DNA of 42,267 bases, from IMG/VR virus record IMGVR_UViG_2541047698_000018; one strand, 5' to 3'. A model generated the notes under the pieces. It had not been told where the DNA came from. It worked only from the letters and a program-made list of their open reading frames with translations, and searched no databases. This document shows, piece by piece, positions 28,438 through 40,201 of this stretch. Made by a program: the position numbers and the translations under genes. The DNA is from a virus (lineage: Duplodnaviria > Heunggongvirae > Uroviricota > Caudoviricetes). The first letter of the stretch is position 1, and every line of letters starts with the position of its first letter.

Positions 28438-28638
28438 TTACGCCTTTTGTCTAGCTGTCACTTCCTGAAAAAGCTTTTCTATCGCACGTACTGTAGAAAA
28501 GCGAGGGTCAGAATGAACCCCGGTAAGAAGCCGACTAATAGAAGACTGCTTCACGCCTGCAATTTCGGCAATTTGGTTTTGGGTATACCCTGAATCAATC
28601 AAGCTTTTGACCATCTCTTGTGGTGTTAGTCCGGACAT
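28438..28638 (-). CDS. Cro-like HTH regulator
   Basis: 66 aa; YTQNQIAEIAGVKQSSISRLLTG helix-turn-helix; divergent from cI; GGAG Shine-Dalgarno. Confidence 0.65.
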   Translation of the reverse strand: MSGLTPQEMVKSLIDSGYTQNQIAEIAGVKQSSISRLLTGVHSDPRFSTVRAIEKLFQEVTARQKA

Positions 28639-28779
28639 ATTTAAGTCTCCACTTTCGTCTATAGCGCAAATTTATACGAAAACGGATTATTCAGCAATAC
28701 AGCAATTCTATGCCATCCTGGATTAAAATATCCGATAACGCATAATCACCGTCCCTGTATACAACATGGATGAATCCAA
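28639..28779. promoter_or_regulatory. Divergent cI/cro promoter-operator region (OR-like)
   Basis: 141-bp gap between divergent genes; minus-strand TTGCTG...TATAAA before cro; motif AACGCATAAT at 28737-28746 recurs beyond cI. Confidence 0.45.
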
Positions 28780-29454
28780 ATGATTGATACTACCGATATC
28801 CTTTCTCAAAACATCAAGTACCTGATGGACAAAGCCAAGATAAGCTCGATAACTGAGCTGGCACGTCGGTTACAGCTGAACCAACCAACGCTACACAGGC
28901 TGGTATCAGGAGAGGTGAAAGATCCGAAATACGCAACGTTAAAGCAGATCGCCGACTACTTCCACGTGTCACCAATAGACCTGGCAGAAAGGAGCCTTCA
29001 AGAAATGGAGAAAGAGGACGCGACAGGTATAAAAACGTATATTTCTCTTAGGTTTAATAAAGTACCTGTTTTGGGAAACACTCAGCTAGGCGTTGGAGGA
29101 CTTTGGAGCGACACCCAATATTCAGTAGGTAGCAGTGATGGTTTCATATACTGGCCGACAAAGGATGAAGATGCATACGCCCTGAAATGTGTTGGTGATT
29201 CAATGATGCCTAGAATCAAAGAGGGTGAGTTCGTAATCGTCGAACCCAACCACGACTACACTCCTGGTGATGAAGTACTTGTGGTTACCCAGGACGGTGA
29301 GGTCATGGTTAAAACCTTCTTGTTCGAACGCGATGGCCTGTTCCATCTAATGTCTGTAAATGAAGATCATCCACCAGTCAGAGTACCACGCGAAAACATT
29401 GAAAAAATCCATTACGTGGCGGGGATCGCCAAATCCGCGCTACGCATGTACTAA
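28780..29454 (+). CDS. cI: CI-type repressor (HTH plus S24 LexA-like peptidase)
   Basis: 224 aa; N-terminal HTH; C-terminal GDSM (Ser nucleophile) and downstream Lys (VMVKTF). Confidence 0.85.
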   Translation: MIDTTDILSQNIKYLMDKAKISSITELARRLQLNQPTLHRLVSGEVKDPKYATLKQIADYFHVSPIDLAERSLQEMEKEDATGIKTYISLRFNKVPVLGNTQLGVGGLWSDTQYSVGSSDGFIYWPTKDEDAYALKCVGDSMMPRIKEGEFVIVEPNHDYTPGDEVLVVTQDGEVMVKTFLFERDGLFHLMSVNEDHPPVRVPRENIEKIHYVAGIAKSALRMY

Positions 29455-29486
29455 CCTTTACAGTCTGATAACTTACTTCTGATCAA

Positions 29487-29517
29487 ACCGCTCTCCACAA
29501 GGGCGGTTTTCTTATTT
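29487..29517 (+). terminator. Terminator after cI
   Basis: accgctc-tccacaa-gggcggt (one G-U pair) followed by tttcttattt. Confidence 0.5.
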
Positions 29518-29538
29518 GCAAAATAATTCATTTTCGCA

Positions 29539-29567
29539 TTGACACAAAATCCCATAACGCATATAAA
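29539..29567 (+). promoter_or_regulatory. Consensus sigma70 promoter (PL-like) with operator motif in spacer
   Basis: TTGACA, 17 nt, TATAAA; spacer contains ATAACGCATA; followed by CGCAT-N5-ATGCG palindrome. Confidence 0.55.
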
Positions 29568-29603
29568 TACGATATCGCATAATTAATGCGTTTTTTAATA
29601 CCA

Positions 29604-29615
29604 GCTCTTTAACAA
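29604..29615 (+). promoter_or_regulatory. boxA-like antitermination element
   Basis: GCTCTTTAACAA matches rrn/lambdoid boxA core, about 35 nt downstream of the PL-like promoter. Confidence 0.4.
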
Positions 29616-29760
29616 ACTGAACCGCGTGACAGGTAAGCCGCAGTACTCCTGGCAAAATGAAATGGCACCCGATGGGATCGAGGTAAGCGCCGAGTCCGTA
29701 TGCGTACGGTAAGCGTAGAGGACAACACCGCGACGAACTGATAAGTCACGCAAGTTGAAA

Positions 29761-29778
29761 CGCCCCGACGATGGGGCG
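29761..29778. other. GC hairpin downstream of the 189-aa gene
   Basis: cgcccc-gacgat-ggggcg perfect 6-bp stem. Confidence 0.35.
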
Positions 29779-29829
29779 CTTAGTTCCTTTAACTCTGGGT
29801 GGCCGGAAAGGTACCCATGCTTAAAGAAA

Positions 29830-30399
29830 TTACTGGTTGTAAGGATCGTAATCCGTGATTGCCTTCCCCGGATTTTCATCTTCAGCAGGCAGTCTGGCCT
29901 CTAAAGCATTTCGGTTGAACAGATAGGAAGCCCTACAGTGCGAACAAACCATATTAACGGCTCGCCCAAGGCCTGGCTTAATAACCAGACCTTCCGCTTG
30001 CAATATAGATTTTCTCTTTTGCTCGTAGCAATTGGGACAAATATAAACCGGAGATTGGTCAGTATCTGCAGAAAGCTTGCTGCGATAGACCAGAGTACCC
30101 CGCATAGGCTGGTAAAGTTCATAGCTCGCCGCTTCAGCGGCCCAGTTCTCTTGCTTTACTTTCTCATTTTCCAGTTCAACAATTTTCTCCTTAGCCGCAA
30201 TCAGCAGCTCCTGAAGCGACATTTGCTGCATCTGAACATCCATTAGCTTATCGAGTAAGGTGTGCGTCTTCTCTTTAACTGCATAGTCGACAGTCAGATT
30301 CTGAATCTCTCTTGCTGCTCCAACCGCGCCTTTAATTGCTCCTCCCACGCCGGATAACGATTCAGTTATCCGGGAAAGAATTCCTTTTTCTTCAGACAT
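29830..30399 (-). CDS. Hypothetical coiled-coil/zinc-ribbon protein, convergent with PL
   Basis: 189 aa; central heptad-like region; C-terminal CPNC...CSHC; sits at the rex-equivalent position next to cI. Confidence 0.55.
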   Translation of the reverse strand: MSEEKGILSRITESLSGVGGAIKGAVGAAREIQNLTVDYAVKEKTHTLLDKLMDVQMQQMSLQELLIAAKEKIVELENEKVKQENWAAEAASYELYQPMRGTLVYRSKLSADTDQSPVYICPNCYEQKRKSILQAEGLVIKPGLGRAVNMVCSHCRASYLFNRNALEARLPAEDENPGKAITDYDPYNQ

Positions 30400-30415
30400 A
30401 TCTAATCTCTCTCAA

Positions 30416-30461
30416 ACTGTAGGGGTGAAGAGATATTAGACGATTTCTCACTGTAGGGGTA
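30416..30461. repeat. Two 11-bp direct repeats upstream of the 189-aa gene
   Basis: actgtaggggt at 30416-30426 and 30451-30461, 35 bp apart, 17-60 nt before the gene start. Confidence 0.5.
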
Positions 30462-30538
30462 CAAGGAGAACCACCTCGCCTGATGTGGTTAAAAGCAGGC
30501 ACTCGATGATATCCATGTAATTGCTGTGTGTAGTCTTT

Positions 30539-30564
30539 GCCCGCCGCAAATGACGGGCTTTTTT
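30539..30564 (+). terminator. Hairpin plus T-run before early-left operon (tL-like)
   Basis: gcccg-ccgcaaatga-cgggc followed by tttttt. Confidence 0.4.
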
Positions 30565-30623
30565 ATGTCTGAAAGCGCACTCGCAACAGCGCGCTCCCCG
30601 ATATGAAAAAAGGAATACAACCG

Positions 30624-33592: not shown

Positions 33593-34222
33593 TCACTCAG
33601 GAATCTTAATCTTTCTCAATTCTTTATTTAGTTCACAGATCTTTTTCTTAGACGGGAAAGTATCATACATCCAAAAACCAACAGTCTCTAAAACTATTAT
33701 CATAACCATATACACAAGATAATTTAAAAGGCCTTCATTTTGCCCTATGGAAATAATGCAGATAATAGAAAAAAGGGTAAACAGCACAAAACACAGAAAG
33801 GAAAACAGACGACTAACAATAAATAAAAAACCTGAAAAATCAACATTAATAAAAAACACTCCGTTATCTTTCTCTATATAATTCTGAAGCTTAATCAACT
33901 GATTTATATACTGTCTTTTTTCTAATCTATTGCAAATGTAAATAACATCTCTTCGGTTATAAGAGGATTGCAATTTCAGCGCATCACGAATAATTTTATC
34001 ATTTATTCTTTTTTCTATGGCACTCTTATCCTCCTCATCCAGATAACGTTCATACTTAACTAAATATAAAATTAACTTCTTGACATATTTAGGCTCTTTA
34101 TACTTATAATTAAAAATGATCTTTCTTATCCAGACTCCCATAACAATCAAACATGAAAAAATATATCCAGCTATTTTCTCCAGATGCTCTGTATGGTCAA
34201 TCAAGTATTGGATCATATGCAT
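33593..34222 (-). CDS. AT-rich multi-pass membrane protein (moron, opposite strand)
   Basis: 209 aa; Lys/Ile/Tyr-rich; N-terminal and C-terminal hydrophobic helices; antisense to replication operon. Confidence 0.5.
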   Translation of the reverse strand: MHMIQYLIDHTEHLEKIAGYIFSCLIVMGVWIRKIIFNYKYKEPKYVKKLILYLVKYERYLDEEDKSAIEKRINDKIIRDALKLQSSYNRRDVIYICNRLEKRQYINQLIKLQNYIEKDNGVFFINVDFSGFLFIVSRLFSFLCFVLFTLFSIICIISIGQNEGLLNYLVYMVMIIVLETVGFWMYDTFPSKKKICELNKELRKIKIPE

Positions 34223-34268: not shown

Positions 34269-36332
34269 ATGTCCAATATACTATGGGGCGACCTGGAAAC
34301 CTATTGCGAAATCCCTATTACGAACGGTACCCATGCGTATGCCGAAGGCGTTGAAGTGATGCTTTTCGCATGGGCTATCAACGACGGGCCAGTAAACGTG
34401 TGGGATATCACTGCCGGTGGTGGTATTCCACACGGCTTATACGAAGCAATCGCAGACCCTGAAACCCTGCTTTATTTCCATAACTCTCACTTCGACCGCA
34501 CCGTTCTGCGTTATGCAATGCCGCGCCTGGCACCGCCAGTCGAACGTTGGCGCGACACAATGGTGCAGGCGCTGGCGCACGGTCTCCCGGGGTCTCTGGG
34601 GGAACTCTGCGAAGTACTAGGCGTCCCGCAAGACAAAGCGAAGGACAAAGAAGGTAAAGCGCTGATCCAGCTGTTCTGTAAGCCACGCCCGAAAAACAGC
34701 AAACTGCGCCGGGCCACCAGCAAAACCCACCCGGAAGAATGGCGGCGCTTTGTTGCTTACGCCGGACTGGATATCGAGGCAATGCGCGAAGTCTATAAAC
34801 GTCTGCCGAAGTGGAATTATCAGGGGACAGAACTGGCGCTCTGGCATCGTGATCAGCAGATCAATGACCGGGGCGTCTGCATGGACGTGGAACTCGCACG
34901 CGCTGCGATCGACGCGGTAGACCAGGAACAAAAGCGCCTGGCAAAGCGTACACAGGAAATGACTGATGGCGAAGTGCAGGCAGCCACACAACGAGACGCG
35001 TTGATTAAGCACATTGTTGAATCCTACGGTGTGGAGCTACCAGACATGCAACGCAGTACTCTGGAACGTCGTATTGCCGACCCCGATTTACCATCTGCCG
35101 TGAAAGAACTGCTGGCTATCCGCCTGCAGGCCAGTACTACCAGCACCAGTAAATACAAGGCACTGATGAAAGGCGTAAGCCACGACGGGCGCTTACGCGG
35201 TACGCTACAGTTCTGCGGGGCGTCACGTACCGGTCGTTGGGCCGGACGGCTATTCCAGCCCCAGAACCTTCCCCGCCCTTCACTAAAACAGGAACAAATA
35301 GACGAAAGCATCGAAGCACTGAAAGCCGGATGTGCAGACCTGCTGTTTGACAATATCATGGAACTAACCAGTTCAGCGTTACGTGGCTGCATTATCGCGC
35401 CAACAGGCAAAAAGCTGGTGGTAAGTGACTTGTCGAACATTGAAGGCCGTATGCTGGCATGGCTGGCGGGAGAAGAATGGAAACTGAATGCATTCAGAGA
35501 GTACGACGCCGGAACGGGTCCGGACTTATATAAACTGGCGTATGCAAAAGCTTTCGATATTGCACCAGATGATGTTGATAAACACATGCGTCAGATCGGT
35601 AAAGTCATGGAACTCGGTCTGGGTTATGGTGGTGGTGTGTCGGCCTTCATCACTTTTGCACTGGTTTACGGTCTCGATCTCGACGAGCTGGCGAACGCCG
35701 CACTACCAAACATTCCCCGCGATGTTATCCGCGAGGCGAAAAGCTGGTACGACGAATCGGTTAAACGCAAGTCAACCTACGGGCTTTCTGAACGGGTATT
35801 TATCGCCTGCGACTCACTTAAACGTCTCTGGCGCCGGGCGCATCCCGCGACCTGTGATTTCTGGTACGAACTGGAGCGCACCGTCCGCACTGCAATCGCC
35901 ACACCGCAAAAAACATTGTATTGCGGTTATCTTAAAATCCGCCGCGATGGCGCGTGGCTGCGCATACAGCTACCATCCGGACGCGCTGTATGCTACCCGT
36001 CTCCGGTTATCGAAAAAGGGAATATCACCTACATGGGGGTTAACTCTTATTCGCGTAAATGGCAACGACTCAAAACCTACGGCGGAAAGCTGGTGGAGAA
36101 CATCACCCAGGCGGCCGCCCGCGACATTCTGGCCGGAAACATGCCGCTTATCGAAGATGCCGGTTACAGCATTGTGCTGACGGTACACGACGAGGTGATC
36201 ACCGAAGCACCTGACACAGAAGATTTCAACGATAAAGCGCTTTCCGCGCTTCTCTCCACTGACCCCGAATGGGCGCCCGATATCCCACTGAACGCTGGCG
36301 GTTTTGAGGCGTACCACTACAAAAAAGATTGA
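34269..36332 (+). CDS. DNA polymerase, family A, with 3'-5' exonuclease
   Basis: 687 aa; exo motif DLETY; motif [18 protein letters not shown]; motif [17 protein letters not shown]; motif C VHDEV. Confidence 0.85.
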
Positions 36333-36396: not shown

Positions 36397-37158
36397 ATGC
36401 AGGAACTAACTGAAATGCCGATCACCTATCCATACCCGAGAGAATCTTTTCCTGACTTTTTGAGGGAGTGTGGGTTCACCAATTTTTCCCACGAACAGCG
36501 TGAGACTTGTGACTGCTATCGTTTAACGAATGGCGTAATTGTTAACCTTTACACCACCCGGACCATTCAGTTTCAAGGTAACCCTCAAGAACGTCCCAAT
36601 GTTGAAACTGCAATAATGACCCATTTAGGAACGCCGCCCACGGCAACACCACTAGCCGTAGAACAGCCATCTGAGCTCCCCAAAAAGATATTCATTGTTC
36701 ACGGCCATGACCATACTGCAAAGGAGCAACTTGAGCTAATCCTTCATAAACTTGGATTACCAGACCATTTCATTTTGCAGAATACGGGAGGGACTGGACT
36801 CACCATTATTGAAGAGCTTGAACGTGAAATTGGGCAAGGACAAACTGCTACCCGTTTCGGGATTGTTCTTTTGACACCTGATGATATGGGATACTCAAAG
36901 CGCGCCGGTGAAGCAGAAATCCAACCCCGCGCAAGACAGAACGTTGTACTCGAGATGGGTATGCTTCTTTCGTCCTTAGGGCGCAGCAATGTAGCAATCC
37001 TTCAGAAACAGCACCTAGAACAGCCTTCTGATGCTAACGGGATTTTGTATCTGAATTTCAACGACCATGTACGTGAAACAGTTCCTCGTCTAGTGCAACG
37101 GTTACAAAATTCTGGTTTCGAATTTACACAAGCTCAAATAGCTAACGCTTCCTCGTAA
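36397..37158 (+). CDS. TIR-like (COG4271/PF10137-type) nucleotide-binding domain protein with unknown N-terminal domain
   Basis: 253 aa; KKIFIVHGHD, VLLTPDD, ARQNVVLEMGMLLSSLGR resemble the TIR-like family as recalled. Confidence 0.5.
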   Translation: MQELTEMPITYPYPRESFPDFLRECGFTNFSHEQRETCDCYRLTNGVIVNLYTTRTIQFQGNPQERPNVETAIMTHLGTPPTATPLAVEQPSELPKKIFIVHGHDHTAKEQLELILHKLGLPDHFILQNTGGTGLTIIEELEREIGQGQTATRFGIVLLTPDDMGYSKRAGEAEIQPRARQNVVLEMGMLLSSLGRSNVAILQKQHLEQPSDANGILYLNFNDHVRETVPRLVQRLQNSGFEFTQAQIANASS

Positions 37159-37181
37159 TTACCCCTTATTGTTGATTACAA

Positions 37182-37202
37182 CCCTGCATCGCGGGGTTTT
37201 TT
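37182..37202 (+). terminator. Terminator after TIR-like gene
   Basis: ccctgc-atc-gcgggg followed by tttttt. Confidence 0.5.
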
Positions 37203-38809: not shown

Positions 38810-40201
38810 ATGATCAATTTTTCTCCTCGCCTCTATCAAGACCTGATTATTAATCACCAAATCGAAACCCTGCGCGGCAACATCTGGGCGGGTATGGGAA
38901 TGGGTAAAACCGTAGCGACACTCACTACGCTGGAAGACCTCTTCATGGCGGGTGCAGAAACACAACCTGCGCTGGTTCTCGCGCCGCTGCGCGTGGCTGC
39001 CAGCACATGGCCGGATGAAGCACTGAAGTGGGGGCATTTGCGCAATATCGAGGTACAACCAATTGTTGGTAACGCCAAAGCGCGCTCTGCAGCGCTGGCG
39101 AACAGCAACGCGAGCGTGTTCACCATCAACTACGATAACCTTGTCTGGCTGGTTGAGGAATTGGGAGAACGATGGCCGTTCGGTACTGTCATTCCAGATG
39201 AAAGCACCCGGCTAAAATCCTTCCGGCTGCGAGGTGGTGGTAAGCGCGCGGCGGCGCTGGGCAAAGTGGCGCATAAGTATGTCCGGCGCTGGATAAATCT
39301 CACCGGTACTCCAGCACCGAACGGCCTGGTAGATTTGTGGGGACAAGCGTGGTTTGTGGACCAGGGGCAACGTCTCGGACGCACTTACGGCGCGTTTACC
39401 TCACGCTGGTTCAACTCGATACAGTTTCCGGGGCAGAGCTGGACCAAACTGGAGCCGTTTGCTCACTCACAGGGTGAAATACAGCGAGCGTTAGCCGATG
39501 TGACCCTATCGCTGGATGCGGCCGACTGGTTCGATATCAAAGACCCCATCCATAACGTAATCCGCGTGGATATGCCGGCGAAGGCCCGTCAGCAGTATCG
39601 TGAAATGGAAAAGGAAATGTTCCTCGAGCTGAATGGCGAAGGCATCGAAGCACCGAACGCCGCGGCAAAGACACTGAAGTGTCTGCAAATCGCCAGCGGC
39701 GCAGTATACACAGATGACACCGGAAGTTGGTCAGAACTGCATGACACCAAACTACAGGCGCTGGACAGCATACTGACCGAAGCAGCTGGCGCACCTGTGC
39801 TGGTTGCTTATCACTGGAAACACGATCTTGAACGCTTGCTTAAAGCATTTCCTCGCGGTCGTCACCTCGACCAGGATCCACAGACACTACGTGACTGGAA
39901 TTCCGGAAAGATTCCTGTTCTCTTTGCACACCCAGCCAGCGCGGGCCACGGTCTGAACATGCAGGACGGCGGAAACATACTGGTATTTTTCTCACATTGG
40001 TGGGACCTGGAGCAGTATCAGCAAATTATTGAACGTATCGGCCCAACCAGACAGATACAGGCCGGACACAATCGTCCGGTATTTATTCACCACATTATTG
40101 CTGCCGACACTATGGACGAAATGGTGATGGAGCGGCGCAACTCAAAACGAACAGTGCAGGACATCCTGCTCGATGCCATGAAAAAGAGAGGTATAGCATG
40201 A
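38810..40201 (+). CDS. SNF2-family helicase
   Basis: 463 aa; Walker A GMGMGKT; DExx box VIPDESTRL; C-terminal helicase domain. Confidence 0.8.
   Translation: MINFSPRLYQDLIINHQIETLRGNIWAGMGMGKTVATLTTLEDLFMAGAETQPALVLAPLRVAASTWPDEALKWGHLRNIEVQPIVGNAKARSAALANSNASVFTINYDNLVWLVEELGERWPFGTVIPDESTRLKSFRLRGGGKRAAALGKVAHKYVRRWINLTGTPAPNGLVDLWGQAWFVDQGQRLGRTYGAFTSRWFNSIQFPGQSWTKLEPFAHSQGEIQRALADVTLSLDAADWFDIKDPIHNVIRVDMPAKARQQYREMEKEMFLELNGEGIEAPNAAAKTLKCLQIASGAVYTDDTGSWSELHDTKLQALDSILTEAAGAPVLVAYHWKHDLERLLKAFPRGRHLDQDPQTLRDWNSGKIPVLFAHPASAGHGLNMQDGGNILVFFSHWWDLEQYQQIIERIGPTRQIQAGHNRPVFIHHIIAADTMDEMVMERRNSKRTVQDILLDAMKKRGIA

Follow-up and report, generated by a model that had tools for sequence, protein, structure and literature searches.

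A homologue of the prophage-encoded defence protein Rip1 in the sieB-type slot of a temperate Escherichia coli phage

Introduction

RexAB of phage lambda is an abortive-infection system that is expressed from the prophage and causes membrane depolarisation. The sieB gene of phage P22 is accompanied by a regulatory RNA, as P22 produces a 105-nt cis-antisense RNA, sas, against it (PMC12197685). A third system, Rip1, is a prophage-encoded anti-phage defence that consists of a single protein and has been characterised experimentally (Patel et al., Nature 651:1060, 2026, as covered by the review PMC13434031). [quoted passage not shown] The same text describes a cryo-EM structure of HK446 Rip1 with the T6 small terminase, in which 12 Rip1 molecules surround an 11-mer small-terminase ring. 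The pore is attributed there to the N-terminal amphipathic helices of Rip1 and the contact with the ring to its C-terminal half, and both liposomes and cells are reported to be permeabilised by Rip1 complexes (PMC13434031). Rip1 is also known from Pseudomonas Casadabanvirus prophages. A conference report (PMC12908700) agrees on this mechanism, and another article (PMC13601566) likewise has the small terminase subunit sensed by Rip1. Finally, the tab moron of phage JBD26 is reported to have its own promoter and constitutive expression from the prophage (PMC10884400).

Here we describe a locus to be compared with these systems, located in a 42,267-nt stretch of phage DNA (IMG/VR record IMGVR_UViG_2541047698_000018) that is referred to below as the window. 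We put at about 80% the probability that the gene in question encodes a Rip1-family, single-protein abortive-infection defence and forms a self-contained unit placed antisense, in the slot of sieB, within a CI-repressed and boxA-equipped PL transcription unit.

Results

The phage and its gene neighbourhood

The source is a temperate E. coli phage sharing 99.7% identity over 1.3 kb with vB_EcoM-606R2 and three sister phages. The gene under study (29830..30399, minus strand, ATG start) encodes a product of 189 aa that is labelled 'hypothetical protein' in GenBank. To its left are a Prim-Pol/DUF5906 primase gene (recognised by domain match), cro (28438-28638, minus strand) and cI (28780-29454, plus strand), the latter a LexA-like repressor with HTH and Peptidase_S24 domain matches; the adjacency to cI pointed out in the original prediction is therefore real. 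To its right, a plus-strand operon encodes a 49/56-aa protein, a 300-aa protein, a DUF2800 PD-(D/E)XK nuclease, an Enc34-type SSB and a family A DNA polymerase. The phage also encodes a small terminase (PF03592, 22376-22948) and a portal (PF06381, 19285-20751).

Two more genes of this left operon may be recorded here. Between the SSB and DNA polymerase genes, a 209-aa ORF (33593-34222, minus strand) lies antisense in the operon, with 29% G+C against a window average of 49%. PHROGs assigns it to phrog_10579, Pfam gives no match, and its slot holds other genes in related phages (a Band_7 gene in the phage L007); it is probably another reverse-oriented moron. In the near-identical phage ON470579 (L014), a left-operon gene downstream of the DNA polymerase gene (38874-39635, corresponding roughly to 36400-37200 of the window) is annotated 'TIR-like domain-containing protein' and is possibly a further defence or counter-defence gene.

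The 189-aa protein belongs to the Rip1 family

Scans of the 189-aa protein against Pfam, NCBIfam and PADLOC returned no family match, including none to a standard early gene, and PHROGs offered only phrog_1244, of 'unknown function'. On the other hand, a phmmer search of the PDB gave a sole match, 9oox_L, named 'ring interacting pore 1 (Rip1)' (E=8.5e-48, residues 3-166), and a profile built from an alignment of 12 homologues, compared with solved structures, again gave one match, chain L of 9oox (E=6e-72). The entry is the cryo-EM structure entitled 'Escherichia phage HK446 Rip1 in complex with the Enterobacteria phage T6 small terminase'. By BLASTP, HK446 gp37 (YP_007111990) is 52% identical to the window protein over 166 aa (E=1e-59), while D3112 orf25 is 32% identical (E=8e-17). 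The tblastn search of phage genomes placed homologues in HK446 (gp37, 52%), ev099, HK620 (hkaP) and HK629/HK630, as well as in the Pseudomonas Mu-like phages D3112 (orf25), DMS3, JBD30 and MP38. Homologues opening with MS(E/D)xKGI back the start codon of the 189-aa ORF. The family is large: among 1.84 billion cluster representatives (clusters at 50% identity), the profile finds 3,420 clusters with E<=1e-3 and 2,064 with E<=1e-10, nearly all of them with proteins of 150-175 aa.

The predicted fold points in the same direction. In the AlphaFold2 model (pLDDT 72.5, falling to 49-57 over the N-terminal 40 residues), helices 7-34 and 39-90 are followed by a beta-rich C-terminal zinc-ribbon domain. 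Foldseek ranks 9oox_M and 9oox_L first (E=1.3e-10, TM(target) 0.87, rmsd 2.3 A over 128 columns) and, beyond these two Rip1 chains, returns nothing significant for this model, the next match having E=0.26. The layout comprises a Gly/Ala-rich amphipathic N-terminal helix, a long central helix, a Cys4 C-terminal domain and a tail of ~25 aa ending in ITDYDPYNQ; within the helical N-terminal half, residues 7-40 have the highest helical hydrophobic moment (0.35-0.42). The four cysteines of the zinc ribbon (CxxC pairs 121-124 and 152-155, i.e. C121, C124, C152 and C155) are conserved without exception in the 12 diverse homologues aligned, and so are Y93, Y105, R106, L133 and Q134 in the same alignment, which includes members from Enterobacteria and Pseudomonas. 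Of the zinc-ribbon coiled coil originally predicted, the zinc ribbon is thus borne out, whereas the 'coiled coil' amounts to a long predicted helix.

Judged by these alignments, the 189-aa protein is a clear homologue and a member of the Rip1 family, and its detection by both phmmer and Foldseek supports the earlier proposal of a lysogen-expressed exclusion or defence gene convergent with PL. The Rip1 system itself has already been described (in 2026), and what is new here is another member of the family. A distinctive feature of this member is its C-terminal tail (residues ~165-189; 29833-29905, minus strand) with the conserved DYDPY, which is confined to a clade of the window protein and two others (P0004 and P0010) and has no counterpart in HK446 Rip1. 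Given this clade-specific tail and the 52% identity, trigger specificity or regulation may differ from that of HK446 Rip1, and the trigger of this particular allele is predicted by homology.

The PL region and its transcription into rip1

A strong intrinsic, tIMM-like terminator follows cI (29485-29509, plus strand, fold z=-3.74) and separates it from OL/PL. Next comes the consensus PL-like promoter that the original prediction had firing antisense into the gene, TTGACA-17-TATAAA (29541-29546 and 29564-29569, plus strand), which is indeed directed into the rip1 homologue. Two 14-bp CI operator copies (29549-29562 and 29567-29580) overlap it. They were recognised by their match to operators of the same type in the cI/cro intergenic region (28674-28687 and 28730-28743), and the PR-side operator has the same offset from its -35 hexamer as at PL. 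Our consensus promoter scan required a T at the last -10 position, which is why this promoter, with its TATAAA, was not listed by it. About 30 nt downstream of PL there is an exact rrn/nut-type boxA, GCTCTTTAACAA (29604-29615, plus strand), with no second exact copy in the window; the boxA annotated in nutL and nutR of HK620 and HK629 has the same sequence. Going by these motifs, the TTGACA-17-TATAAA element is a bona fide PL equipped with a nut-type boxA. After boxA, neither a boxB-like hairpin nor an N-like ORF was found, and the question arises how PL transcripts get past the downstream terminators.

A G+C-rich hairpin is located ~50 nt past the rip1 stop codon (29758-29781, minus strand), with a 9-bp stem followed by UUUCAACUU (fold of 29829..29745, z=-3.49). 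It falls below the T-run rule of our terminator scan, and is a probable terminator of the rip1 unit, possibly a bidirectional one. The PL leader (29576-29830) was also considered as a structured RNA of a put-like or riboswitch-like kind and was rejected, since it folds no better than shuffled sequences (z=-0.08) and has no homologues outside the phage group. Two other elements of the region can be noted. A perfect 15-bp palindrome, CGCATAATTAATGCG, followed by T6 (29576-29590, plus strand), overlaps the right-hand PL operator near +1; the scan flags it as terminator-like, and a Cro site or a third operator is another possible reading. The 47-aa ORF URC08718, which the ON470579 record lists as a CDS (29512-29655, minus strand), extends across the PL promoter, operators and boxA and is probably no gene.

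The consensus scan detected no further plus-strand promoter ahead of the left operon (30400-30620), so that PL transcripts probably have to traverse rip1 in antisense before they arrive at the genes for replication and recombination. Once the prophage is induced, antiterminated PL transcription would collide with the transcription of rip1 and would be antisense to its mRNA, leading to less new synthesis. The orientation of the gene suggests that read-through from PL would damp rip1 in this way when the phage itself grows lytically, and the reversed orientation of homologues in three unrelated operon contexts, together with the reported behaviour of tab, fits this step.

The alternative that survives best retains the Rip1 homologue and uncouples it from PL. 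According to this explanation, which we regard as possible and distinctly the less probable of the two, the gene is constitutive in both the lysogenic and the lytic state, its antisense orientation merely insulates the moron from the host operon, and self-immunity comes from an unrecognised terminase and portal of the phage's own or from an anti-Rip1 factor. The hairpin at 29758-29781 could indeed halt PL transcripts before they enter the gene, and tab, which sits in the equivalent Pseudomonas slot, protects its own phage by a protein antidote and not by transcription (PMC10884400). Moreover, transcriptional interference cannot remove Rip1 that is already present, which implies that the phage's own small terminase and portal are probably not recognised or that another antidote exists. 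Damping by PL is favoured, on the other hand, by the exact nut-type boxA behind this promoter, by the probable passage of PL transcripts across the gene and by the upstream cassette (described below), which in P22 goes with sieB and its antisense RNA sas. Overall, the orientation of the gene, the operators and the parallels to sieB/sas and JBD26 tab suggest that rip1 is expressed in the lysogen and silenced by PL.

The gene occupies the slot of sieB rather than that of rex

The original prediction had assigned the gene to a rex-like position. This assignment has to be revised, since the cI terminator and OL/PL intervene between cI and the rip1 homologue and the gene is on the opposite strand, which places it inside the PL transcription unit and antisense to it. 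The same arrangement is seen for sieB in lambda and P22, where the gene lies on the strand opposite PL, just beyond N or gene 24. A rip1 homologue is found in a sieB-type slot in HK446, HK629 and HK620 as well, and three relatives that share the backbone of the window phage have one (proteins 51-64% identical) in the same place and orientation. Homologues are always opposite in strand to the surrounding lytic operon, across three unrelated operon contexts. [quoted passage not shown]

The shared slot raises the possibility that the window protein is an analogue of SieB in function as well as in position, i.e. that it brings about membrane exclusion by the SieB mechanism and not by a ring-templated pore. 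The upstream cassette is also the same as that of lambda and P22 sieB, and HK620 hkaP is annotated as a 'putative superinfection exclusion protein' (the literature on hkaP yielded only a biosensor paper that uses its intergenic regions as insertion sites). However, BLASTP with lambda SieB aligns only a short C-terminal stretch of 29 residues (E=0.001), and no Pfam family, the SieB models included, matches the window protein. The resemblance of the tail to the lambda SieB C-terminus (YDPYN) was taken as chance, because the P22 SieB is devoid of the motif and there is no accompanying DNA similarity. Set against the overwhelming match to Rip1, this makes a SieB-type mechanism very improbable.

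An upstream cassette common to rip1 and sieB genes

Upstream of the Rip1 gene lies a conserved cassette of ~90 bp (30413-30503) of the sieB type, which contains both copies of an 11-bp repeat, a TAAnnT -10-like hexamer and an AACCAC/GTGGTT hairpin. The two exact direct repeats of the original prediction are there, the proximal ACTGTAGGGGT (ACCCCTACAGT on the gene strand) at 30416-30426 and the distal ACTGTAGGGGT at 30450-30460, both given for the plus strand. As a statistical exception per se they do not stand: no other exact 11-mer is repeated locally in the window, yet 43% of block shuffles give at least one such repeat. That they are non-random follows instead from the invariance of both copies in a cassette shared with lambda, P22, HK446 and HK620. 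The cassette was found in 159 phage records; it immediately precedes sieB in lambda (cassette at 34395-34485), in P22 and in a lambda-like prophage of E. coli, and it immediately precedes rip1 in HK446, HK620 and HK629. A six-way alignment shows variation at neighbouring positions but none in either ACCCCTACAG copy, in the AACCAC/GTGGTT inverted repeat or in the TAAnnT between the repeats.

By alignment, the hexamer TAATAT (30433-30438, minus strand) is the candidate -10 element of rip1, corresponding to TAAACT in lambda and P22 and to TAAAAT in HK446 and HK620 (T, A, A and the final T are invariant); the -35 region of this promoter is non-canonical. With TAATAT as the -10, the transcript would start at ~30426, the first base of the proximal repeat, which would then span ~+1 to +11 of the rip1 transcript, with the distal repeat at ~-34 to -24 of the promoter. 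By analogy with P22, the cassette is where a sas-type RNA would lie.

A third copy of the repeat, inverted and with 1 mismatch, is present within the coding sequence of rip1, where it covers the codons for the second CxxC pair (29929-29939, minus strand), and 29931-29944 is complementary to the distal repeat region at 30445-30458 (14 nt, 93%). The three copies compare with 0.4 expected, and 2 of 100 shuffles reach three.

The proximity of a Cys4 zinc ribbon to direct repeats immediately upstream could also mean that the protein is a nucleic-acid-binding regulator of these repeats or of early transcription and no defence effector, an idea that we consider the least credible of all, as identical repeats precede the unrelated sieB in lambda and P22 (and are therefore no private operator of the window protein), as relatives with 51-64% identical proteins are without them (L006-L008, which are nearest to the window phage in backbone, differ from it in this upstream region), and as no solved structure other than the two Rip1 chains significantly matches the model.

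An RprA-like element between rip1 and the left operon

At Rfam gathering thresholds, no match was obtained in the whole window. An E-value-mode scan listed a full-length but sub-threshold match to RprA (RF00034) at 30455-30568 on the plus strand, with 50.2 bits against a gathering score of 70 and E=1e-5 to 5e-5. Only the 3' half of this match (30519-30566) is convincing: it contains AAUUGCUGUGUGUAGUCUUUGCC, 24 nt identical to chromosomal E. coli rprA, and then a hairpin and U-run terminator. In the direction of PL transcription, the element separates rip1 from the first gene of the left operon and is the first terminator that PL transcripts meet past rip1. The related phage L007 retains the block, its hairpin differing in sequence, and similar blocks occur in the Erwinia phages Ea9-2, Frozen and Rexella. 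Among the papers searched, none was found that describes a phage-borne RprA-like element.

Discussion

The observations can be assembled into the following model of a unit that consists of a sieB-type promoter cassette, the coding sequence and a terminator hairpin. In the lysogen, CI would keep PL off and the cassette promoter would supply Rip1, which, by homology, should be harmless alone. Upon superinfection, the C-terminal zinc-ribbon half would bind the ring formed by the invader's small terminase (in E. coli phages) or portal (in Pseudomonas phages), and the N-terminal amphipathic helices would assemble into a membrane pore, so that the cell lyses before progeny are complete and the infection is aborted.

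A function can hereby be proposed for a gene that GenBank leaves 'hypothetical' and that is unmatched in Pfam, NCBIfam and PADLOC, although the surprise is limited by the fact that the Rip1 family and its mechanism were published in 2026. Beyond this assignment, Rip1 and SieB are shown to alternate as the cargo of a single lambdoid slot, with the same conserved cassette upstream, even in a phage whose replication and virion backbone is quite different. The shared slot and cassette point to a portable module of the type 'promoter plus defence gene', and the antisense control of P22 sieB suggests asking whether Rip1 is controlled likewise. A more far-reaching and speculative version, to which we give little credence at present, holds that rip1 and sieB are interchangeable cargo behind a single promoter/antisense cassette, and that PL read-through in the phage's lytic phase could yield a sas-like, RprA-module RNA that shuts off rip1 translation and could act on the host targets of RprA. 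If true, a pore-forming defence would have an RNA-based self-immunity, and the same RNA would carry an RprA seed and an Hfq-terminator module acting in trans.

Among the known systems, lambda RexAB resembles the locus in being a cI-adjacent, prophage-expressed abortive-infection system. In contrast to the window gene, which is downstream of PL and on the opposite strand, rexAB is upstream of OL/PL, on the cI strand and co-transcribed with cI, and there is no homology between RexAB and the window protein. The Tab/anti-Tab pair of JBD26 provides the parallel of a reverse-oriented moron with its own promoter in a lytic operon, directed against the late morphogenesis of the invader. However, Tab is an unrelated 83-aa protein that blocks tail assembly and forms no pore, and self-protection there is due to a co-encoded antidote (PMC10884400). 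The likeness to the sieB/esc/sas locus of P22 and lambda is closer, as it extends to the antisense slot in the PL operon and to the ~90-bp upstream cassette with both ACCCCTACAG repeats, at 84-86% identity. SieB likewise mediates an abortive exclusion expressed from the prophage, although by a protein unrelated to that of the window.

The closest counterpart is HK446 Rip1. Unlike in HK446, the window rip1 directly follows the PL leader, with no intervening N gene; the window phage has a non-lambda-like myovirus backbone (Prim-Pol primase, DUF2800, Enc34-type SSB and family A DNA polymerase), and its protein has the extra tail of ~25 residues with DYDPY. On the other hand, the two proteins are homologous over residues 3-166 and share the predicted fold, the Cys4 set, the aromatic and Arg residues and the amphipathic, Gly/Ala-rich N-terminal helix, and both genes are prophage-borne, antisense to a lytic operon and preceded by the same upstream cassette.
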